Under the pieces are notes generated by a model, which was not told the DNA's origin, ran no database searches, and saw nothing but the letters and a program-made list of their open reading frames with translations. DNA of 64,000 bases, taken from positions 1-64,000 of IMG/VR virus record IMGVR_UViG_3300010158_000028. One strand, 5' to 3'. The DNA comes from a virus. Below are positions 6,378 through 54,852 of the stretch, piece by piece (within the stretch, counting starts at the first letter, position 1; each line of letters starts with the position of its first letter). A program made the translations under genes and the position numbers.

Positions 6378-6697
6378 TGGATGTTGTGGAACTTGTTAAT
6401 AAGTATGGTTTTCCTATTGTTGCAGCTTCGGGTTGCGGATATATGGTGTTTTATGTTTGGTCTTGGGCTACTAAAGAAGTTAAACCTGTTCTCAGTGAAG
6501 CAAATGCAACTCTAATTGGATTAATTGATAGAATCAGAATGTTAGATAATGATTTAATTAGATTGAATCAAAAGGTTGATGTTGTTCTACATCTCCGTGG
6601 TAAAACAATTGAACATGAACGGGTATTAGCAGAACAAAAAATTAACGCATTTGTGGATGATGAGGATAAGAAAACTGCATCAGCCGGTGAAGGTTAG
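6377..6697 (+). CDS. small membrane/coiled-coil protein, paralog of 4439..4717
   Basis: 'YGFPIVAASGCGYMVF' and 'LIDRIRMLDNDLIRL'. Confidence 0.7.
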   Translation: MDVVELVNKYGFPIVAASGCGYMVFYVWSWATKEVKPVLSEANATLIGLIDRIRMLDNDLIRLNQKVDVVLHLRGKTIEHERVLAEQKINAFVDDEDKKTASAGEG

Positions 6698-7337
6698 GTT
6701 TATATAATCTATTCACAAAATTGAGTAACAATTCGTGATGGTCATTATTGTGCCAGTGTTTCTTCATCCAACTATAACTCTGATACCAATTATATTCACT
6801 TTCTGGATGACACCCAATTAATCCTATACGGTCTTGAATAATTGCCATTGGATCATTATTGGCATATGTTGCAACAACTTCAAATTTAGTTTCATCACCA
6901 ACTAAAGCACATCCATCATAGAAAAACATTTTTTCTGGTTTGTTTTCCCATGTTATATCTATTGCTTTTGCGTGTGGTCGTCTAGTATCTGTATTAGGTT
7001 GTCTAATATATTGAACTGCTTCAACACCATCTAAAATGTCAAAGTAATCTTTACCTGCCCAATATGCACCCATACAGATACCTAGATATGCGCCACCTTT
7101 TTCCACAAATTCTCTGATAACATTACGATTCTGTTTGAATAGATAATCAAAACTATCTGCATCTCCTATACCACCAGGAAACGCAACCATATCTACATCA
7201 TCAAAAAAATTATCATCTAATTCATGTCTAGTAAATATCTTAAAATTATATTCACTTTCTAATGATTTAATAATACCGTTACCTGACTGTATCGAACACT
7301 TAGGTTGATGCACGAATAACGCTATTACGGGTTTCAC
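6642..7337 (-). CDS. BPL_N / class I glutamine amidotransferase-like protein
   Basis: 'VAFPGG', nucleophile elbow 'YLGICMGAY', 'HPE'; likely GTG start at 7337 coupled to the upstream stop. Confidence 0.8.
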   Translation of the reverse strand: MKPVIALFVHQPKCSIQSGNGIIKSLESEYNFKIFTRHELDDNFFDDVDMVAFPGGIGDADSFDYLFKQNRNVIREFVEKGGAYLGICMGAYWAGKDYFDILDGVEAVQYIRQPNTDTRRPHAKAIDITWENKPEKMFFYDGCALVGDETKFEVVATYANNDPMAIIQDRIGLIGCHPESEYNWYQSYSWMKKHWHNNDHHELLLNFVNRLYKPNLHRLMQFSYPHHPQMR

Positions 7338-7471
7338 CTGATATAGTTTCCAGTGACTACCACATAGATGAATAATACCCAACCAAATCTTAATGCAATA
7401 TCAAACCATCTTTCAAAATGATCTAACCATGATTTAGTATCACTGTTTTTGTTCTTGATCCCGTCTTCCAT
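7334..7471 (-). CDS. small membrane protein (45 aa, not in the ORF track)
   Basis: MEDGIKNK...FGWVLFIYVVVTGNYIR; its stop overlaps the next GTG. Confidence 0.5.
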   Translation of the reverse strand: MEDGIKNKNSDTKSWLDHFERWFDIALRFGWVLFIYVVVTGNYIR

Positions 7472-7598
7472 TGTCAACCTTTCCTATTTGCACTTCATGA
7501 TAGGTATCTGGTTCAACATATTTGTCCCAGACTTTTTGTCCTGTGTTCCAACCAAATACAGTAATAAATCCAATTGCAATATAAGTTAATACAAACAT
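7440..7598 (-). CDS. small membrane protein (52 aa, not in the ORF track)
   Basis: GGAG RBS; MFVLTYIAIGFITVFGWNTG. Confidence 0.55.
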   Translation of the reverse strand: MFVLTYIAIGFITVFGWNTGQKVWDKYVEPDTYHEVQIGKVDNGRRDQEQKQ

Positions 7599-7608
7599 AA
7601 TATCTCCA

Positions 7609-9615
7609 TTATTTTGATGTTGCTTTATAAGTCCCTGCCCAATCTTCTGGTTTACCTTCTTCTAATCTATCTATCATTAATTTATAATACTCATACATCT
7701 CTTTATTCTGAATCATTTGCGTTCTTGCTGTAGTTAATGCTTCATCCCATTTACCTTCATAATACCAATACAGAAAAGCATTTTGTCCTTCTGTTTGCTT
7801 TGACAATGTATATATCTTCACGCCTTCCTTCTTACCTTTAACTGCAATACAATCCAATTCAAATACATCATATTCATCCTGAACTAATTTGGCAGTTTCT
7901 GGACCCAATATAATACGTACCCCATAATTCTTAGATTGACCTTCAAGGCGACTTGCGAGATTGACTCCATCACCAAGACAAGTATAATCAAAACGCTGAG
8001 AGGAACCCATATTACCGACAACAACAATGTCACTGTTAATACCCAAGCCCATACCAAAGGCGGGTATACCTTCTTTAATAACTTCTTCATTAAATCCATC
8101 TAGACTCTCCATCATTTCTAATGCGGTTTTAACTGCCATCTTTGCATGATTAGGTTCATCTAGTGGCGCATTCCAAAATGCCATCTGTGCATCACCAATA
8201 TACTTATCTAGTGTTCCATTGTTCTCTAAAATCTTTGCGGTCATTGCAGTCATGTACCGATTCATAATTTTAGTAAGACCTTGAACATCTTTACCATAAT
8301 GTTCACTGATACTTGTAAATCCTCTTACATCGGTAAACATAATTGATAATTGTCTTGATTCACCACCAAGTGTTAATAACTCTGGATTCTTTTGTAATTT
8401 TTCAACAAGTGCGGGTGATAGATATGTACCAAACTGTTTCTTGATTTGCATCTTTTGTAAGAATTCAGATACAAACTTTACGGCATAACAATGTAAACTA
8501 ACCAAAACAAAACATACAACCAAAGCAGTTGAGTCCAGTAAGGACAAAGCCGCATCATAATAAACAAGACTACCACCAACACCACCAGCAATAACCAATG
8601 CCGCAAATCCAATCCCCACATATGTCCACCTTGATAAAAGAATAATTAATATACTACCAAAAATCATTAATAATATTTCTGCGCCATCTGCCCAATCAGG
8701 TCTTTGAATATTGGTTTGACTAGTTAAAGTATCTAAAACTGCCGCTTGTAAATAATGTGGGTAGACTGCTCCAATAGAAGTAGCGACCGGGTTGTTAAAC
8801 CCTTTTGCTGTGAGACCAACAATGACGATTCCACCATCGAAGGATTTGGGTAACTTATTAAGAGAATGTTCTTTAGGTCTTGATTTCCAATCAACCCAAA
8901 TTCTACCGAACTCATCCGTTGTGATTTTGCCAAATTTAGGAATTCTGACTGCTTCAATTCCTGTCTCTGTAACTTTAACTTGAAAACTTGGATCTCCTGA
9001 AGCAACTCGCAATGTTTCAAGACTGATACTTGGATACAACTTTTCTTCAAATCTGACGACCATTGGAATTCTTCTGGTGACGCCATCAATCTCGGGAAGT
9101 GTATTAACAACACCAATGCCAGCAGCACTCTCATTTATTATCCTTGTGTTAGGTTGAATACTATTATATTCAATACCTACTGAACCAGAACCAATAACTG
9201 ATACACCAGGTCTGAATGGATCGTAATTTGCTTTAATTGGGTCATCACTTCCTGTATGTGGAAGAATGACTGAAAATTGTTTTAGTGTTTGTGCTAACTG
9301 ATTGTCTTGATTAAAGCGATCACGCTCAGGCATAAAGACATTAAACACAACAAGCCCAGCATTACGAGAATACAAATCAGCAATAATGGTTGCGTATTTA
9401 CTTCTTGGGAACGGAAATTGTCCTTCTTTTTGAATAAACTCATCGTCTATGTTTACTACATGTATCTGTTCGGATACAGTAGTCTCCTTATTAGTTATTA
9501 AAGTGTCGAAATACCGAAGTCTTACGGATTCAACAAATGAGGGATTAGCGATTCTAATGCATACTAATAATATTAATGTTAGTATTGCGGTCCACGGAGA
9601 TAATAATTTTTTCAT
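7609..9615 (-). CDS. CHASE2-domain class III adenylate cyclase
   Basis: N-terminal TM; CHASE2 motifs ('VVNIDD', 'DGVTRRIP', 'IVIVG'); three TMs; cyclase motifs 'FTDVRGFT', 'DKYIGD', 'DYTCLGDGVNLASRLE'. Confidence 0.93.
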   Translation of the reverse strand: MKKLLSPWTAILTLILLVCIRIANPSFVESVRLRYFDTLITNKETTVSEQIHVVNIDDEFIQKEGQFPFPRSKYATIIADLYSRNAGLVVFNVFMPERDRFNQDNQLAQTLKQFSVILPHTGSDDPIKANYDPFRPGVSVIGSGSVGIEYNSIQPNTRIINESAAGIGVVNTLPEIDGVTRRIPMVVRFEEKLYPSISLETLRVASGDPSFQVKVTETGIEAVRIPKFGKITTDEFGRIWVDWKSRPKEHSLNKLPKSFDGGIVIVGLTAKGFNNPVATSIGAVYPHYLQAAVLDTLTSQTNIQRPDWADGAEILLMIFGSILIILLSRWTYVGIGFAALVIAGGVGGSLVYYDAALSLLDSTALVVCFVLVSLHCYAVKFVSEFLQKMQIKKQFGTYLSPALVEKLQKNPELLTLGGESRQLSIMFTDVRGFTSISEHYGKDVQGLTKIMNRYMTAMTAKILENNGTLDKYIGDAQMAFWNAPLDEPNHAKMAVKTALEMMESLDGFNEEVIKEGIPAFGMGLGINSDIVVVGNMGSSQRFDYTCLGDGVNLASRLEGQSKNYGVRIILGPETAKLVQDEYDVFELDCIAVKGKKEGVKIYTLSKQTEGQNAFLYWYYEGKWDEALTTARTQMIQNKEMYEYYKLMIDRLEEGKPEDWAGTYKATSK

Positions 9616-9617
9616 AG

Positions 9618-9998
9618 TTATTTTTCCTCACATGGAGGCATATTGTAAAATGTTATACCACTAATTATTCCTACTACTATTGAAACTGGTGTTGCTGCGC
9701 CCGCTATTACAAATATATTATTTATTGCTCCACCCATCCAAATAGAACCCATAAAATTATCCATTTTTACTTGTGATTCTTTTGGTAAACCATCTTTGTA
9801 ATTTAATAAAAAAATCTTTCCTATCGTTGTTCCTATAAACCCCAGTGGATTGATTTCATAAACATTAGGCATATTCAATGCTATTGCTGTTGTTGCTGTA
9901 TCTGCAATAGCACCTTCTTTTGCTGTTGGTTTCAAACACATAGAAAAACAAGAAAAACTAGTAAACAATAACAATATCATTACGTAATATTTTTTCAT
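9618..9998 (-). CDS. membrane protein
   Basis: Signal peptide, hydrophobic segments and an 'EINPL' motif; coupled within the operon. Confidence 0.6.
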   Translation of the reverse strand: MKKYYVMILLLFTSFSCFSMCLKPTAKEGAIADTATTAIALNMPNVYEINPLGFIGTTIGKIFLLNYKDGLPKESQVKMDNFMGSIWMGGAINNIFVIAGAATPVSIVVGIISGITFYNMPPCEEK

Positions 9999-11098
9999 TT
10001 TTGTATAATAGTAATTGTTGTTGATCCTCCACTATTGATTCTTTGATATAGTGGAACATTACTCTGTGTAATATTTAGTATCAGATTTGCGTCTTTTCCT
10101 ACAATTACCTGTGCAAAATGTGTACCACCTTTTGTCAATACTAATCTATCATACTCATCTATACCATAGAGTAATCCTGATGCGGGATCATAACCAGGTA
10201 ACATTGATAACTCTGCAGTCAATACATCTTGACTGGCAAACAATGCAGCATTAACTTGATCCAATACATTAGGTAATAAATCAAAATCTAAAAAATTAAT
10301 ATCTAATGCATTATATCGTAATACATCTTGATCCAATACAGAGGTCTTTAATAAATCTTTATTCAAAAAATTTACATCAAGCGCATTTCTAGTTTCTGGT
10401 CCTCTTTGTTCACTTTGTTCTCTTTGAATCTCTCTTGGTGGATCAATAATCAACATATTGTTAATATTCATTTGATCCATATGAACAATAACTGGTCTTG
10501 TTGGTGGTGTGCTTAGTGATGTTACTAATGTTGCTTGATACGCAACATCCATGTGGACTGTACCTGAATCATTCGTAACTGATATTGCACCTGTAACACA
10601 TGCTTTTTCATCACATGACGGTAATAACATAACCATACTTCTACCTAATTCATCTACCGTCATTGAAAAATCTGTACCTCTTACTGCTATTGTTGCAGTG
10701 GGTGTTTGTATACTCACACTCTGAGGATTGCTTTTTGCTATTTGACCACTAGCATATCTAGCGGTACCTAATGCTACTTTCATTGCCAGTTTGCCTGTTC
10801 CTTTTGCAGGATCGTAGACAAAATCGTCAATGATTAAACGTGACTGCTCAGTAATCTTTACTGTTGTGGCATCATCAAATGTCAATTGTGCTTTGGACTT
10901 AGCAGTGGATATAGTATCATTCATTTCAATACCAGTATTTACCGCACTTGGTATTGATTTTTTATTTCTAATAATTTCGGTAGGACCGGTCTGTTCTGTT
11001 ACTTTACCAACACCACCGAAACTAGTTAGACTGATTGATAGTAATACTGTTGCTATTGCCAGTTGAACTGACGCTAACACTTTTTGCCAATGTACCAC
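9995..11098 (-). CDS. periplasmic FecR-domain protein
   Basis: 'DTISTAKSKAQLTFDDATTVKITEQSRLII' and 'TPTATIAVRGTDF'; GTG start at 11098 with GGAG 9 nt upstream gives a signal peptide. Confidence 0.85.
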   Translation of the reverse strand: MVHWQKVLASVQLAIATVLLSISLTSFGGVGKVTEQTGPTEIIRNKKSIPSAVNTGIEMNDTISTAKSKAQLTFDDATTVKITEQSRLIIDDFVYDPAKGTGKLAMKVALGTARYASGQIAKSNPQSVSIQTPTATIAVRGTDFSMTVDELGRSMVMLLPSCDEKACVTGAISVTNDSGTVHMDVAYQATLVTSLSTPPTRPVIVHMDQMNINNMLIIDPPREIQREQSEQRGPETRNALDVNFLNKDLLKTSVLDQDVLRYNALDINFLDFDLLPNVLDQVNAALFASQDVLTAELSMLPGYDPASGLLYGIDEYDRLVLTKGGTHFAQVIVGKDANLILNITQSNVPLYQRINSGGSTTITIIQK

Positions 11099-11618
11099 TT
11101 TGTGTAACTCCAATTGTATTTGTGTTTCCGGTTGCAGTAATATAGGCCGTTGTTGCACCTGTATTTGTTGATGAATGTGTAATTGTATTAGTGTCACCAA
11201 GAACTGTGATTTCACTTATATGATTACCACCGGTACCCAAATTCGTTGTTACTGTGTTATCATCACCAGTAATAATTTGTTTTATTGTTGATCCAGAACA
11301 ACTTGCTGTTCCTGTTGACCCACAAGTAATTGATTGTAGATTACCACTACCATGTGTTGTAACAGTCGTATTTGTTGATGCACCATTCACAATCATGGCT
11401 AATGTATTGTTGTCACCAATCTGTTCTATTGCAACTGTGTTAGAACCACCGCCCATAAAAGCGGAAACTAGTGAATCACCAATAGCATTACCTGTTCCAT
11501 CTTGTGTAATGGTAACTGTAGAACTGTCACCCACCTGCTCAACATATATCTCATTAGCAAATATATTATTAGCAAATAACAACAAAGCCATAATAATATA
11601 GCCTGTTATCTTTTTCAT
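11022..11618 (-). CDS. curlin-like secreted beta-solenoid repeat protein
   Basis: Signal peptide followed by repeated xQxGxxN units (EQVGDSS, TQDGTGN, EQIGDNN, ITGDDN, VLGDTN, ATGNTN). Confidence 0.72.
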   Translation of the reverse strand: MKKITGYIIMALLLFANNIFANEIYVEQVGDSSTVTITQDGTGNAIGDSLVSAFMGGGSNTVAIEQIGDNNTLAMIVNGASTNTTVTTHGSGNLQSITCGSTGTASCSGSTIKQIITGDDNTVTTNLGTGGNHISEITVLGDTNTITHSSTNTGATTAYITATGNTNTIGVTQSGTLAKSVSVSSTGNSNSITINQSN

Positions 11619-12400
11619 TTTGTTTCTTCCTTTTGTTTGAACTTCCATATTCCTTTCTGTTCACCATCTATAATCATTTGAGACACTGCATGTTCTATTG
11701 CTACACGAACAGCATATGTCGTTGGTTCATTTAATGCGTTTCCATTCTCTAATTCTAAAGCATGAGTACCCGCATCAATAAACTTCATCACACCTACATT
11801 ATGTGCAGTGCTATAAATTGTCTTAGATACAGAATTTGTTATTAATACTTCTCCACTTGTTACACTAACCAATCTCATAGAGATAACAACTTCATCAACT
11901 CTGTATTGCTGACTTGCACCGAGTCCTAAAAATCTTGCACCATTACCACCAGAACGAATATTACTATCATAACCAATAATACCACCTTCAATCATTACAC
12001 CTGCAACTGTCAATGGTTTTAATGGTTTTGCTTCTTTACCTTCATAAACTTCTCTTTGGTTCCTAATCAATTGCCGTTCTTTAACTAAATTCTCTAACCC
12101 AACTCTTTCAACAACTTTGAACCAATTCTTTGAATCTTGTAATGCTTTAATTAAAAATACTTCGGCGCCTTGTGTTACTGCTTTACTAAACAGAGCCATC
12201 TTATCACTTGATTTGTTCTGTCCCGTTCTATCTAAAAAACCATATACAGCAATTGCAATCGGAGGTCCATCTAATTCTGGCATTTTATCTAATAATGATT
12301 CTTTAACGGTTAACTTAACAGGATCTTCCTGCAACCGTTGCATTTCATTAGATGCACACCCCGATAACATAATAACAACCAAAATAACAAAATATCTCAT
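11615..12400 (-). CDS. csgG: CsgG/HfaB-family outer-membrane secretion lipoprotein
   Basis: Lipobox LSGC; 'AVYGFLDRTGQ', 'FSKAVTQG', 'WFKVVER', 'EGGIIGYDSN', 'NEP'. Confidence 0.92.
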   Translation of the reverse strand: MRYFVILVVIMLSGCASNEMQRLQEDPVKLTVKESLLDKMPELDGPPIAIAVYGFLDRTGQNKSSDKMALFSKAVTQGAEVFLIKALQDSKNWFKVVERVGLENLVKERQLIRNQREVYEGKEAKPLKPLTVAGVMIEGGIIGYDSNIRSGGNGARFLGLGASQQYRVDEVVISMRLVSVTSGEVLITNSVSKTIYSTAHNVGVMKFIDAGTHALELENGNALNEPTTYAVRVAIEHAVSQMIIDGEQKGIWKFKQKEETK

Positions 12401-14445
12401 TAGAAATTCATTCTTACTTTAAAAATCATTGAATCAGTCTTGTTACCTTCTTTTTGTTGCTGTGCTACTTGTATACCAACATTACTATTCTTTTGTGGTG
12501 AGTAAAACGCACCAGCAGAGGCAGTTAAATAACCATCTGTTGTTGAACTTAACTGACCAGTGACACTAATCTTATTATCAAAATTCTTACGAATCATTGC
12601 ACCAAATTCAGCATAATCAAAACTTCTTGAATTGCTATCAACTGCTCTGGCACTTTGAATACTACCTTTTTCAGTGTAACTATTTACTTTTGTTGTTCCA
12701 AATGTGTATCCAGCAAATAGTCTAATCATTTGTGAAAGCTCAGGACTATAAACTTTATTAGATATCCAACTATCTGTTCCTTTTGTTGCATAATAGTTTC
12801 TAAACAATCCTTCAACATTTCTTATTGAACCAATATCATTACTTGCACTACCAATATTGGTTGATAAAATTAAATCTTTAGGCAACTTGTAAACACTATA
12901 AACACCAAAGTGTTGTTTTTCTTGTTTAGTAAGACTATCTACACCTGACATTCTTGTTGATACTAAACTGTATTGACCACCAATCTTTAAATCACTATTG
13001 ACATCTCTATCAAAAGCAATTGCGGATATATCACTCTTAGAACTATAACCATCAGCCATTGTAGTTTTTAAACTACCGATTGTGGTATAGAATGTTCCGT
13101 TGTCTGTCTTGTATCCATCTTGACGGAATGGATCCATATCTAAACCACGATTGATACCTTTATTCAAATCAGACAATTGTGCTTGTTGGTCAATGCGACC
13201 AGAGAAACTATCATTAGCAACTGAAGTAACTACATCATTAACTAAAGATGAGGCAGCACTTGTAGAACTATCCGATGTTGTTACAGAACCATCACTCCAT
13301 GTTGTTGTAGTGCGAACTAGAGTGGTAATTGTTCGTGTAAATGGTGTTGTAACATTAGTGGTTGTTTCTCTTGCAATAGTTTGCTTTGTTTTGTTTTCGG
13401 TTGCAACATGATGTGCAGTGCTGGCAGTGATTACAGGCAATCCAGTATTAACTACTGTATTATCTGAAACGGTAACTGTAGCAGTGCTTGTGCTAACAAC
13501 TGTAGGTGCGGCAGGTGCTACTGGTGTGACTCCAACCATATCGCAACTTGATGTGCAACCAGGAACAACACCTGGCGTTCCACCACCTGCACCAGAACTT
13601 ACTGCAGTAGCACCAGCGGTCAATGTGGATGGTCCAAAAATATATGCATATTGAAACTTAACAATATCACCAACTGCAACTGATGGAACAAGAAAACCTA
13701 AACCAATTGTATAGTCACCAGTGCCATTATTAACACCGTTGTAATATTGAATTGGATCGGTTGTCCATCCGCTACTGATACCAGCACCAACATTAGTTGC
13801 AGCAGAATATAAACCTAATGCATACTTTGATGATAATGCTTCAGAGAATACTACTTGTTTAATACCAATAGGACTGAATCCTAAAGTATTTGTTGTTGCT
13901 GAACTATCACCTGCTGCCGCTCTAGCATCTGGATCAGTGAAACGACCAAAGTAAAGATTAGTCATTGCTACCGATGATGTTAATGTTGTAGTGATATCAA
14001 CAAATTTTTGATTGTTATTAAAACGAACATCGTTGATTAAACTGTAACCATTACCGTTACCAGTCCAAACTGCACGATTATCAAATGTAGAACTTGCGTA
14101 AGCAATTCCACTGTAATTAGTTAAAATACCACCAGTGATAGAAGTAGCACCAGTGTTATTATTTGTTTGTGTTATAACTGTGCCAGCACCATTCGTATAC
14201 TTAACAGTGAAACCCTCAAACGGAGTTCCTGGAGTTAAATAATCGTATGATGTATTAAATGTTCTTGTACCGGTATTATCATAGAGAATACCAGGACTTG
14301 TGTTACCTTTACTTCCAATTGTACCATAATCACTCACACCAATTTTAATGTAGTCGCCTGTAAGCGCAAAAATCGATCCAGTTGTTTGAGCATATATCCA
14401 TGACGAAAAACATAACAATGATACTGTTATAATTTTTCTAAGCAT
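12400..14445 (-). CDS. autotransporter-like outer-membrane protein (Thr/Ser-rich passenger plus beta-barrel)
   Basis: Signal peptide; T/S/G-rich N-terminal half; amphipathic beta-strands in the C-terminal ~250 aa; terminal Phe. Confidence 0.68.
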   Translation of the reverse strand: MLRKIITVSLLCFSSWIYAQTTGSIFALTGDYIKIGVSDYGTIGSKGNTSPGILYDNTGTRTFNTSYDYLTPGTPFEGFTVKYTNGAGTVITQTNNNTGATSITGGILTNYSGIAYASSTFDNRAVWTGNGNGYSLINDVRFNNNQKFVDITTTLTSSVAMTNLYFGRFTDPDARAAAGDSSATTNTLGFSPIGIKQVVFSEALSSKYALGLYSAATNVGAGISSGWTTDPIQYYNGVNNGTGDYTIGLGFLVPSVAVGDIVKFQYAYIFGPSTLTAGATAVSSGAGGGTPGVVPGCTSSCDMVGVTPVAPAAPTVVSTSTATVTVSDNTVVNTGLPVITASTAHHVATENKTKQTIARETTTNVTTPFTRTITTLVRTTTTWSDGSVTTSDSSTSAASSLVNDVVTSVANDSFSGRIDQQAQLSDLNKGINRGLDMDPFRQDGYKTDNGTFYTTIGSLKTTMADGYSSKSDISAIAFDRDVNSDLKIGGQYSLVSTRMSGVDSLTKQEKQHFGVYSVYKLPKDLILSTNIGSASNDIGSIRNVEGLFRNYYATKGTDSWISNKVYSPELSQMIRLFAGYTFGTTKVNSYTEKGSIQSARAVDSNSRSFDYAEFGAMIRKNFDNKISVTGQLSSTTDGYLTASAGAFYSPQKNSNVGIQVAQQQKEGNKTDSMIFKVRMNF

Positions 14446-14457
14446 TTTTTTCCTTTT

Positions 14458-14916
14458 TTAGAAACCAAATGTAGCAATAGGCACAGTGATATCTGTTCTA
14501 TTACCATTTGACTCCGTTATCGTTAGTGTTACCTCTGTGCTTGATTTAACCCATGATATATTGGTCCCCTGAAAATCCATTGTACCAGATGTTGCACCAT
14601 TATCAGTAAACATAGAATCTGCTAATTGTTTTGATAATTGTGCATAAATTCGTGATTCAACATTAACAAGAAATTTTGCTAAGTTGGTACTAGATGCAGC
14701 ACGATTAGCCGCATCATTGGCGGCTTTGGCATCATCTTTTAATTTTTGTCTGCGTTGTTGTTCAATCTGCTCAATAGTCAGGACATGCGAAGAATACCCT
14801 ATACCCGAAAATACAGGACTATTGAATTGATGGATTAACTCACCGGCACTTGCAGTAGAAACCGCAAAAAATGTATAATAACAAATAACACAAAGCAACT
14901 TGGTTATTGTTTTCAT
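14458..14916 (-). CDS. csgF: CsgF-like curli assembly protein
   Basis: Signal peptide then 'ELIHQFNSPVFSG', similar to the CsgF N-terminus FQFRNPNFGG; 'ESRIYAQLSKQL'; upstream of csgG. Confidence 0.75.
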   Translation of the reverse strand: MKTITKLLCVICYYTFFAVSTASAGELIHQFNSPVFSGIGYSSHVLTIEQIEQQRRQKLKDDAKAANDAANRAASSTNLAKFLVNVESRIYAQLSKQLADSMFTDNGATSGTMDFQGTNISWVKSSTEVTLTITESNGNRTDITVPIATFGF

Positions 14917-14921
14917 AAAGA

Positions 14922-15455
14922 CTATTTATGTTTTATTATTATAGTTTCGTGAGTATAGAGTTGGATTGTGTTTTTGCGTCTTTTTAATGAAAACTCATCA
15001 AAATTCATGTAGTTTTTGGCATCTGCAGAGTCAAAAAGATATATTTTCTCTGTTCGGCAATCAATTTTCGTTACTACAGACCAATGATGCCAAGGTGGTC
15101 CAAACGAAATAATTGCAACTTTCTTTTCATTTATATGTTCATTTAGACAAGCAAAGTATTCATAATGATCATCAAAGAATTCATCCTCAAAAATTACTTC
15201 AAATTTAAACTTTTTTTCTTTTTGAGTTACCTTTTGTAATATTTTTGTAACATTCTCTAAGTATGTACCTTCGGCATAATATTTGTGAAAGAGATTAGGA
15301 TTGATTGATAACATCTCTCGCATTAGTTTCTCTGCACGGTCTTGGCCATACTTTGAGTCTAGATAATGAAATGAATTGATAATAGAGTAGAATCCACAAA
15401 GACCATCAAGTAGTCCTTGTTTATATGGTTCTTTTTTAATTATCGGTTTAGTCAT
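14922..15455 (-). CDS. papain-like (C39-like) cysteine peptidase fold protein
   Basis: 'QGLLDGLCG', 'HHWSVV' and 'YLFDS' give a Q/C/H/D arrangement; start moved to 15455 to avoid tRNA-Arg. Confidence 0.6.
   Translation of the reverse strand: MTKPIIKKEPYKQGLLDGLCGFYSIINSFHYLDSKYGQDRAEKLMREMLSINPNLFHKYYAEGTYLENVTKILQKVTQKEKKFKFEVIFEDEFFDDHYEYFACLNEHINEKKVAIISFGPPWHHWSVVTKIDCRTEKIYLFDSADAKNYMNFDEFSLKRRKNTIQLYTHETIIIKHK
14923..14930 (-). promoter_or_regulatory. putative late promoter (CATAAATA) for the curli-like operon
   Basis: One mismatch to TATAAATA; 6 nt before the csgF-like ATG; no SD. Confidence 0.45.
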
Positions 15456-15468
15456 AATATTATATATT

Positions 15469-15544
15469 TGGCCTGCTTGGCTGGAATCGAACCAGCGACC
15501 CACAGCTTAGAAGGCTGTTGTTCTATCCACTGAACTACAAGCAG
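15469..15544 (-). tRNA. tRNA-Arg(UCU)
   Basis: Acceptor CTGCTTG/CAAGCAG; anticodon arm ACAGC-CTTCTAA-GCTGT; GGTTCGATTCC; encoded CCA. Confidence 0.95.
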
Positions 15545-15548
15545 AAAA

Positions 15549-15624
15549 TGGCTCCCCGACCTGGACTTGAACCAGGGACCTGCGGATTAACAGTCCGTCG
15601 CTCTACCGACTGAGCTATCGGGGA
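15549..15624 (-). tRNA. tRNA-Asn(GUU)
   Basis: TCCCCGA/TCGGGGA acceptor; CTGTTAA loop; CCA. Confidence 0.95.
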
Positions 15625-15630
15625 ATATTT

Positions 15631-15705
15631 TGGTGCCCGATGTCTGGATCAAACAGACGGCCTACGCATTACAAGTGCGTTGCTCTATCACTGAGCTAAT
15701 CGGGC
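15631..15705 (-). tRNA. tRNA-Thr(UGU)
   Basis: GCCCGAT/ATCGGGC acceptor; CTTGTAA loop; variant T-loop TTTGATC; CCA. Confidence 0.9.
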
Positions 15706-15707
15706 GT

Positions 15708-15795
15708 TGGCGGAAGCTGTGAGATTCGAACTCACGGACCCTTTCAGATCGGCAGATTTCAAGTCTGCTGGTTTAAACCTCTCACCCAAACTTCC
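15708..15795 (-). tRNA. tRNA-Ser(UGA)
   Basis: GCAGA-CTTGAAA-TCTGC; long variable arm; GTTCGAATC; CCA. Confidence 0.95.
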
Positions 15796-15803
15796 ATAAA
15801 ACT

Positions 15804-15887
15804 TGGTGGAGTATCCTGGGATCGAACCAGGCGTGGCAGAGCCGGCGGATTTACAGTCCACTGCATCACCGTTGATGCTTCTACTCC
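15804..15887 (-). tRNA. tRNA-Tyr(GUA)
   Basis: CTGTAAA loop; variable arm; GGTTCGATCCC; CCA. Confidence 0.92.
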
Positions 15888-53736: not shown

Positions 53737-54852
53737 TTAAGTGTTAGACACTAACAGTATCTCGTAATTTACAGCAGTTTTTCCTGCTCCAACTTCTATT
53801 ACAGTATACATATCGGTTTTTTGTGGTAATACTAATGGAAACGGAAAGTCATATATGTAAGTGCTGTTGTCTACAATAGCTACGTGAAGAACCATAAACG
53901 CTTTACCAAAATATCTACCCATAAAATTTACCACTGTGGCACCTGTTGATGAAGCATCACCTTTAAACAAGTAACCAGTATAACCTGCGGGCACAGTATA
54001 AATGCCTGCTTTTGCTGCGCCTCTGCCTGATGTTATTTTAGATACTATAGTACCAGTGCCAGATGTAACATGTGTAGTAATGTCACCATCATTAGTATTT
54101 GCTCCATAACACATGACCTTATGAATACGTAAAAAATGGTTAGATGTAGCTACGGGGGTTCTTGAATCTGCCGCATCTAGAGTTATTACTTCACTTTGAT
54201 TAACATAATTGGCATCTAGCCCATCAATAAGAATTGGCATACTTCTATCAGTAGCATTATTAGTTGAACTCTTTACATATAATGTCTGTGCTGTGGCAAA
54301 ACTACTCCACGGATATGATGTGCCGCCTGACCATACAGCATCACCAGCTGAAGTAGAGGGATTGTATCCTGTAATTTGTTCTGTAGTGTGTCCTGCAATT
54401 AATCCCTGTGTTATCTGCATAGTCCACAACTTGCCCTGAGCGCTACCGCCAATGGTTGATACATTCCATGTACCACTCTGTGTAACTGCAACTGTTGAAT
54501 TTGAAATACTAACAGAACCATTAACTGTTTGTGTTGATGGAAAATTATTCACACTCACTGTACCGTTAGCAGTTACATTACCCTGTATAGGAACAAATGT
54601 AGTTAAATTGCCATATGTACCAACTTCAGTTAAATGAATATGAACTGGATTGGAAGGTGAACTTGTGACATTCACAGTTGTTCCAACATTAACATCACCA
54701 GTAATAGTGATGTTATTTGATCCTAATGTAACAGGTAATGGATTACCTATAGTAACCAAATTACCAGCAGCACCATTAGCCAGATATATCACTTCATACC
54801 GTGACGATATCTTTGGGTCTAACGATGTTGTTTCAGTATTATATTGCGCCAT
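53737..54852 (-). CDS. putative virion structural protein
   Basis: Thr/Val/Asn-rich repeats, then a 'GLDANY' and 'YTVPAGYTGY' domain. Confidence 0.6.
   Translation of the reverse strand: MAQYNTETTSLDPKISSRYEVIYLANGAAGNLVTIGNPLPVTLGSNNITITGDVNVGTTVNVTSSPSNPVHIHLTEVGTYGNLTTFVPIQGNVTANGTVSVNNFPSTQTVNGSVSISNSTVAVTQSGTWNVSTIGGSAQGKLWTMQITQGLIAGHTTEQITGYNPSTSAGDAVWSGGTSYPWSSFATAQTLYVKSSTNNATDRSMPILIDGLDANYVNQSEVITLDAADSRTPVATSNHFLRIHKVMCYGANTNDGDITTHVTSGTGTIVSKITSGRGAAKAGIYTVPAGYTGYLFKGDASSTGATVVNFMGRYFGKAFMVLHVAIVDNSTYIYDFPFPLVLPQKTDMYTVIEVGAGKTAVNYEILLVSNT

Follow-up and report, generated by a model that had tools for sequence, protein, structure and literature searches.

A "curli operon" has been described in pelagimyophages by Zaragoza-Solas et al. 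in 2020, in a region characterized as hypervariable (PMC7029224). Wittmers et al. in 2022 reported an adenylate cyclase and a histidine kinase along with CsgF, CsgG, CsgA/B and FecR in pelagiphages of both the podo- and the myo-type, and they found the viral module at each of the 65 stations in a global virome survey and its transcripts in ocean metatranscriptomes (PMC9599517). The isolates Pelagibacter phage HTVC008M (gp014-019) and Methylophilales phage Melnitz (gp99-104) are annotated with csgF, csgG, curlin, FecR, a further gene and adenylate cyclase. Neither CHASE2 nor an autotransporter is mentioned in these two papers or in that of Buchholz et al. in 2022 (PMC9004378). Here, we describe a copy of this module in a 64,000-nucleotide stretch of DNA (positions 1 to 64,000 of IMG/VR virus record IMGVR_UViG_3300010158_000028), which we call the window. 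An original prediction, made from the letters of the window alone, knew of no description of such a phage system. The module with FecR and cyclase had in fact been published (PMC9599517), and the core csgF-csgG-curlin-FecR-(variable slot)-adenylate cyclase is a system of a known kind. What the window adds is an autotransporter, a small membrane protein of a conserved family, a FecR-like protein with a curlin-like tail and copies of the cassette in cellular genomes; the autotransporter, the single curlin and the small membrane protein mark this copy as a variant.

The phage record that holds the window has 161 kb and is judged 96% complete. The phage is a T4-like aquatic myophage with T4-type replication genes (primase, ribonucleotide reductase) and tRNA clusters, and its nearest named relatives are HTVC008M and Melnitz, both Kyanoviridae. 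The genes of the module lie on the minus strand, where they abut or overlap one another in a run that directly follows five tRNA genes on their downstream side. In the order of the run, the features are as follows (aa, amino acids; ORF, open reading frame; E, Expect value).

15469-15887, minus strand: cluster of five tRNA genes (Arg-TCT, Asn, Thr, Ser, Tyr), found with ARAGORN.
14922-15455, minus strand: 177-aa orphan immediately upstream of csgF; apart from the nearest relative, only a few metagenome proteins share it.
14458-14916, minus strand: CsgF homologue with signal peptide (Pfam PF10614, E 1.2e-16; phrog_35372, E 1e-48).
12400-14445, minus strand: 681-aa predicted type Va autotransporter (AlphaFold2 models, Foldseek match to NalP 1uyn, PF03797).
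11615-12400, minus strand: CsgG outer-membrane lipoprotein (Pfam PF03783, E 1.3e-51; PDB 3x2r/4q79, E 9e-49).
11022-11618, minus strand (ORF start 11648/11618): 198-aa curlin-repeat protein (Pfam Curlin_rpt, E 2.5e-10).
9995-11095, minus strand, start uncertain (ORF open to 11215): periplasmic FecR-domain protein of ~366 aa (Pfam PF04773, E 1.3e-11; phrog_37870, E 3e-98).
9618-9998, minus strand: 126-aa small membrane protein (family conservation, hydropathy).
7609-9615, minus strand: receptor adenylate cyclase (Pfam CHASE2, E 1.1e-38, and Guanylate_cyc, E 1.9e-19; PDB alignments).
7440-7598, minus strand: 52-aa ORF with a hydrophobic N-terminus, found in the nearest relative too.
6642-7382, minus strand: GATase/BPL_N-like gene (Pfam).

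Pfam and the structure models place all genes named in the original prediction where it had put them and in the same order. The genes are tightly coupled: the 681-aa gene and csgG overlap by 1 nucleotide, the ATG of the curlin gene directly follows the csgG stop codon, the FecR gene overlaps the 3' end of the curlin gene, and the FecR and 126-aa genes overlap by 4 nucleotides. No clear internal promoter or terminator was found within the run, where sigma-70 and terminator scans gave no more sites than shuffled sequences, and a motif scan found no T4 late-promoter box upstream of it.

The co-occurrence of these genes in phages is near-universal. We mapped all window proteins onto 74 viral loci with a CsgG 47-93% identical to that of the window, a sample of fairly close relatives that are not all independent. 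CsgF lies upstream of csgG in 72 of the 72 loci with enough sequence on that side, curlin and FecR follow csgG in 54/54 testable loci, and the cyclase does so in 41/42. The comparison of FecR and cyclase with phage csgG had been set beforehand, and its outcome supports the earlier claim that the genes are one conserved unit. FecR and the cyclase abut in 8 loci and are otherwise separated by up to 4.5 kb (range 0 to 4.5 kb, median 1.2 kb), which makes this interval a cargo slot; in three loci the cyclase is inverted. The slot holds second curlins, autotransporters, an Endonuclease_NS protein (13 loci), a metallophosphoesterase with a glycosyltransferase of family 4 (GT4; 9 loci), a 1164-aa discoidin-domain protein and small lipoprotein-like genes. 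Examples are the phosphoesterase and GT4 genes at 12566-14479 of locus L050 and in 8 other loci, and the DNA/RNA non-specific endonuclease at 15036-15935 of L063 and in 12 other loci. The calcineurin-type phosphoesterase could in principle be a cyclic AMP (cAMP) phosphodiesterase or an LpxH-like enzyme.

The cassette is also present in a few bacteria. A search of the FecR alignment against one genome per prokaryote species returned two kinds of loci, namely, the whole cassette and a FecR + CHASE2 pair without curli genes. A complete csgF-csgG-curlin(504 aa)-FecR-CHASE2 cyclase cassette lies at 6466-12489 of L088, a 397-kb contig (GC content, 0.53) of a Henriciella metagenome-assembled genome (MAG). 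Its surroundings are cellular, with TonB-dependent receptors, FAA hydrolase, ALO oxidase and a host-like GC content. Caulobacteraceae MAGs (L082, L083) contain the whole cassette as well. A published statement holds that FecR and the cyclase are not found within bacterial type VIII secretion system (T8SS) operons; the whole cassettes in Henriciella and Caulobacteraceae qualify it. We dropped the top "bacterial" match, a "Luteolibacter" MAG (L081, CAYWLC010000001.1), as evidence of cellular origin. This contig of 104 kb (GC content, 0.32), binned as verrucomicrobial, carries genes for a T4-type gp43 polymerase, gp44 and the gp45 clamp along with the curli cassette and is a misbinned T4-like phage contig.

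FecR + CHASE2 pairs without curli genes occur in Giesbergeria, Simplicispira, Burkholderiaceae, Aliidongia and others, where other output domains are found (HD-GYP in Giesbergeria). The Burkholderia "BiofilmReg" operon and its Pseudomonas aeruginosa relative combine a FecR-domain protein and CHASE2 with a histidine kinase output (PMC5192318). In Sinorhizobium meliloti, the CHASE2 cyclases CyaK and CyaD1/D2 need the outer-membrane beta-barrel NsrA to sense an external protein signal, with cAMP then acting through Clr (PMC7529298, PMC13001267). We considered NsrA as an autotransporter, a name that neither of the two papers gives it.

The FecR-like protein of the window consists of a signal peptide, the FecR domain, LDxNFLDxDLL repeats and a C-terminal pair of curlin-like repeats. 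Its gene probably starts near 11095 and not with the long GTG-started ORF, because a signal peptide is predicted there, followed by the mature sequence VGKVTEQ as in 17 relatives; in the alignment, a cleavable signal peptide and the mature VGKVTEQ start are found in all 18 members. Judged by its domains, the protein is not a Fec-type anti-sigma factor, since it has PF04773 only, behind a cleavable signal peptide and with no anti-sigma domain, and the phage lacks a TonB-transducer plug and an extracytoplasmic function (ECF) sigma factor. A search of the phage genome for Fec-type partners found no Plug domain and no Sigma70_r2.

What does the tail of this protein resemble? FecR ends with ...GGSTTITIIQK, and the curlin ends with ...GNSNSITINQSN. 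In an end-to-end alignment, the final 42 residues of FecR match the last two repeats of the curlin at an hhalign score of 27-30 (P 1e-4). In 200 column shuffles of this comparison, the mean score was 10.9 (standard deviation, 2.3; maximum, 19.8), and the observed score was reached in 0/200. The FecR domain itself and the reversed tail scored far below the true tail against curlin. Pairwise BLASTP of the tail against the curlin is weak (E 0.005), and the Pfam Curlin_rpt model does not detect the tail in 18/18 members even up to an E-value of 5; significance comes only from the profile-profile comparison with shuffles. Curli-linked FecR proteins have 346-384 aa. The curli-free bacterial FecR partners of CHASE2 have 150-300 aa and end right after the FecR domain, without the tail.

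The cyclase is predicted to have one transmembrane segment, a periplasmic CHASE2 domain, three further transmembrane segments and a class IIIb catalytic domain. PF05226 covers residues 14-325, and the hydrophobic segments are at 2-29 and 308-384. The motifs FTDVRGF, DKYIGD and DYTCLGDGVNLASRLE align to P. aeruginosa CyaB (3r5g) and Spirulina CyaC (1wc0), and this alignment confirms the catalytic residues named in the original prediction. The predicted catalytic set is complete, with two metal-binding Asp residues, the ATP-selecting Lys/Thr and the transition-state Asn and Arg, and its motifs identify the enzyme as a class IIIb adenylate cyclase. A complex model of the CHASE2 periplasmic domain (24-315) and mature FecR (29-366), both supplied as alignments, gave ipSAE values of 0.04 and 0.01 against a mark of 0.32 and carries no weight for or against binding. 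Among the cassette cyclases (L007-L068), there are two motif types. The window has the type with DKYIGD and DYTCLGDxVNLASRLE; the second type has IKFIGD and YDVLGDxVS(T/L)AARLE, with the transition-state Asn changed to Ser and both metal Asp residues, the Lys and the Arg kept. At 13090-14838 in L058 and L059, the cyclase ORF has 582 aa, compared to 667 aa in the near-identical L060, and may be a truncated copy.

The PF10614 match of CsgF spans positions 4-132 of the 132 in the profile, and a search of the PDB with the CsgF sequence found no match. The mature N-terminus of CsgF has the motif QFNSPVFSG, which resembles the FxFxNPxFGG CsgG-binding motif of Escherichia coli. CsgG keeps an LSGC lipobox, and its alignment to the E. 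coli protein (3x2r/4q79) is full-length. The curlin-repeat protein has a signal peptide and ~7 imperfect Q-x-G-x-x-N repeats. It is the product of the sole curlin gene of the phage, in which a six-frame search found three Curlin_rpt matches and no second curlin. Far from the cassette, a 371-aa ORF (53737-54852, minus strand; phrog_8198, function unknown) has a sub-threshold Curlin_rpt match (E 7e-4, 18 bits), which might reflect a second divergent repeat protein or chance.

The 681-aa gene lies between csgF and csgG, and its models identify the product as a type Va autotransporter, the "beta-barrel with passenger" of the original prediction. The predicted layout comprises a signal peptide, a passenger (~20-300), a Thr-rich beta stalk (~316-417), a linker helix (420-435), a 12-strand barrel (451-676) and a C-terminal Phe. 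In the first whole-protein AlphaFold2 model, the C-terminal part (helix 420-435, then 12 strands) was confident and the passenger was of low confidence. Foldseek matched the barrel to NalP (1uyn; E 3.6e-10, template modeling score [TM-score] 0.77) and also to EstA, BrkA and EspP. PF03797 passes its cutoff at 27.6 bits in a six-frame search and is carried by most of the >1400 metagenome homologues, and all relatives have the signal peptide and the terminal Phe. Homologues occur with the module in 17/74 loci: the csgF-csgG interval holds one in 6 loci plus the window, and the FecR-cyclase interval holds one in 11.

The passenger was remodeled with AlphaFold2 from a 73-sequence alignment, which gave a beta super-sandwich with a predicted local distance difference test score of 96.8. 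It is found in 332 representative clusters, within proteins of 300 to 2600 aa. The fold resembles the N-terminal domains of glycoside phosphorylases/hydrolases of families GH94, GH15 and GH116 (E ~5e-7, TM-score 0.5-0.64). It is much closer (TM-score 0.80-0.86) to the N-terminal heads of predicted surface proteins with PEP-CTERM, CHU_C or type IX secretion system tails or cadherin repeats, and to those of several viral clusters. A protein-atlas feature search returned no named family for the passenger. On the basis of these models, the passenger is probably a surface-displayed head with putative glycan-binding activity.

Autotransporter homologues also occur in phages away from curli genes. 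Phage contigs L078 (9016-11031) and L079 encode a full-length autotransporter, with a passenger 67-73% identical to that of the window and with no curli genes nearby; its neighbors are a PGDYG protein, an APS-kinase-like P-loop protein and GTP cyclohydrolase I. A distant homologue of the barrel is present in only two GenBank phage isolates, the Synechococcus phages DSL-LC02 and DSL-LC03. In DSL-LC03 (OR003938.1; L150, 6143-7792), it is annotated as an autotransporter and adjoins two endolysin genes, not curli genes.

How could these proteins work together? We hypothesize that, during infection, the host outer membrane acquires a pore built from CsgG and CsgF and that this pore exports the curlin-repeat protein. 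The autotransporter would be inserted through the host beta-barrel assembly machinery (BAM) and display its beta-sandwich head, so that the surface of the infected cell is remodeled. The periplasmic FecR-like protein may be a two-ended adaptor, with its curlin-like tail directed to curlin subunits, the fiber or the pore and its FecR domain facing CHASE2, as suggested by the bacterial FecR + CHASE2 pairs. The state of curlin export or assembly would then be relayed to the CHASE2 cyclase, which would produce cAMP from ATP. This cAMP would act on a receptor of the host, because the phage encodes no cyclic nucleotide monophosphate (cNMP)-binding domain. Taken as a whole, a variant of the published module in which the export state of curlin is reported to the CHASE2 cyclase seems to us about evenly poised between right and wrong. 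More doubtful, and put forward tentatively, is the specific coupling device, in which FecR would gate the cyclase through its FecR domain and dock, by its curlin-like strands, on curlin, the CsgG/CsgF pore or the end of the fiber, turning the state of the surface fiber into cAMP.

The circuit from the outer membrane to the cytoplasm with cAMP as its output, as proposed in the original prediction, is plausible by analogy: FecR + CHASE2 pairs recur, S. meliloti provides a precedent, and FecR has the curlin-like tail. These three observations stand, and from them we infer the circuit itself. If true, the phage would encode a trans-envelope second-messenger sensor of a self-built fiber that responds to its assembly, its load or contact with a cell or particle, and the same device would be used by some Alphaproteobacteria. 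Should FecR, CHASE2 and the cyclase read the curli/autotransporter layer, the infected cell would bear a sensory organ made by the phage, and there would be a first handle on what CHASE2 senses. The hosts of these phages and their relatives include some of the most abundant bacteria in aquatic habitats.

Several points weigh against this mechanism. Fibers, cAMP output and signaling are predictions for every phage copy. CsgE (PF10627) is absent from the 96%-complete phage record in a search whose control matched in E. coli; with CsgE absent and only one curlin present, canonical curli assembly is not guaranteed. The constriction loop of CsgG retains only the Phe of the Tyr/Asn/Phe triad, and the similarity between the FecR tail and curlin is short, with an HHalign probability of only 57%. 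No cNMP-binding protein was found in the phage record. Cultures of Melnitz did not clump (PMC9004378), and the S. meliloti FecR-domain neighbor of cyaD1 was not needed for signal perception.

A different possibility is that the genes serve solely as a fiber/adhesin module, for aggregation of the "sibling capture" type or as a barrier to superinfection, with FecR replacing CsgE as chaperone or gate for curlin and the cyclase being a separate regulator at the locus. Hypotheses of this kind have been published (PMC7029224, PMC9599517), and they fit with additional surface proteins in the variable slot, with the absence of CsgE and with the FecR gene always following and overlapping the curlin gene; a chaperone or cap could use the curlin-like tail. 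We nevertheless consider this explanation unlikely. Bacteria lacking curli genes nevertheless pair the FecR domain with CHASE2 proteins, the cyclase is kept in 41/42 loci and in the cellular cassettes, and the lack of clumping in Melnitz cultures counts here too.

The variable slot raises the question of whether there is a functional unit at all. The csgFG-curlin-FecR genes and the cyclase could owe their shared location, between the replication and structural modules, to a hypervariable hotspot for insertions and only flank its cargo slot. A gap of 0 to 4.5 kb with unrelated cargo, the inversion of the cyclase in three loci and the description of the region as hypervariable agree with this idea, but the same gene set and order recur in podophages, in myophages and in cellular genomes at host GC content, and FecR and the cyclase abut in 8 loci, which makes this explanation improbable.

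Buchholz et al. speculated, from synteny and modeling, about a role of the Melnitz module in lysis timing (PMC9004378). In such a scheme, the CsgG/CsgF pore would be a gated, pinholin- or secretin-like timing device, and cAMP would tune lysis or lysis inhibition. We regard this as very unlikely: CsgG is an outer-membrane pore and does not depolarize the inner membrane, a true curlin substrate and an autotransporter are encoded alongside it, no holin or endolysin gene adjoins the cassette in the window, and the cassette is present in non-phage bacterial chromosomes. The original prediction had suggested lysis inhibition or the sensing of another virion, and no sequence feature speaks for either. 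Least probable of all is the import of nutrients or cofactors (iron-siderophores, vitamins) through an ungated CsgG pore with FecR as an iron-citrate-type regulator, which Wittmers et al. suggested from the FecR name and the absence of CsgE (PMC9599517), as the signal peptide is followed by nothing but the FecR domain, anti-sigma domain and membrane anchor both being absent, the phage has neither a TonB-dependent transducer plug nor an ECF sigma region 2, and the bacterial partner of FecR is CHASE2, not FecA.

Of the remaining genes of the run, the one for the 126-aa membrane protein, to judge by its homologues, represents a conserved family and is not an accident. Its 21 homologues have 75% mean column identity, two invariant Cys residues, an N-terminal CLKPTAK motif and a C-terminal FYNMPPCEE motif. 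In every contig examined, the gene directly follows FecR with a 4-nucleotide start-stop overlap, as in the window; downstream of the homologues lie a second curlin, a 682-aa autotransporter, a GATase/BPL_N gene, a radical-SAM/SPASM gene and the CHASE2 cyclase. It is missing from L003, a contig 91-96% identical to the window. In a Giesbergeria sinuosa isolate (L092, 9734-13061), genes for a FecR-domain protein (211 aa), an OmpA-family protein (215 aa) and a CHASE2-HD-GYP protein (677 aa) follow one another in a layout that parallels FecR, the 126-aa protein and the CHASE2 cyclase.

The 177-aa orphan has only 6 homologues in 5.8 billion proteins, none with a Pfam domain. The ORF probably starts at 15455, because the 193-aa version overlaps the tRNA-Arg gene. 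A Cys...His-His-Trp pattern was read in it by eye (GLCGFYS...WHHWS), and this pattern could be a Cys/His peptidase dyad. Pfam searches up to an E-value of 5 gave no match for the 681-, 126- and 52-aa proteins and noise only for the 177-aa protein, and PHROGs has no family for these four proteins or the curlin. A GATase/BPL_N-type gene is found inside the cassette, between the autotransporter and the cyclase, in contigs L153 and L154.

How does the module of the window compare with known systems? The only tested chain from the outer membrane to cAMP of such a kind is that of S. meliloti, which is a functional analogy only; NsrA has ~1200 aa, there is no curli pore, and the cAMP receptor, Clr, is known there. 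The bacterial pairs of a FecR (COG4254-type) and CHASE2, including S. meliloti cyaD1 beside smc02177, share with the phage an exported FecR protein that adjoins a membrane CHASE2 transducer, and a small envelope protein can intervene. Unlike in the phage, their outputs are HD-GYP or histidine kinase domains, and their FecR proteins are short or have LysM, with no LDxNFL repeats, curlin-like tail or curli genes. With classical type Va autotransporters (NalP, EstA, BrkA, EspP), the predicted autotransporter has in common the signal peptide, the passenger, the linker helix inside a 12-strand barrel and the terminal Phe; it differs in being phage-encoded and in having a ~280-aa beta super-sandwich as the passenger instead of a beta-helix or esterase.

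The E. coli/Salmonella curli system (CsgA, B, C, D, E, F, G) shares with the phage a full-length CsgG (E 9e-49), CsgF and Curlin_rpt, whereas the phage has a single curlin, a constriction triad reduced to Phe and no CsgE, CsgC or CsgD. Closest is the viral T8SS module of HTVC008M, Melnitz and HTVC023P-type podophages, which has the same genes in the same order, lies between replication and structural genes and likewise lacks CsgE. The histidine kinase that precedes csgF in the podophage form only (PMC9599517) is not in the window, where no histidine kinase domain was found and the 177-aa orphan and the five tRNA genes lie upstream. The window proteins are 37-50% identical to those of the isolates HTVC008M and Melnitz, and, compared with the published viral T8SS, the window has an autotransporter between csgF and csgG, one curlin in place of two and the 126-aa protein where the second curlin would be.

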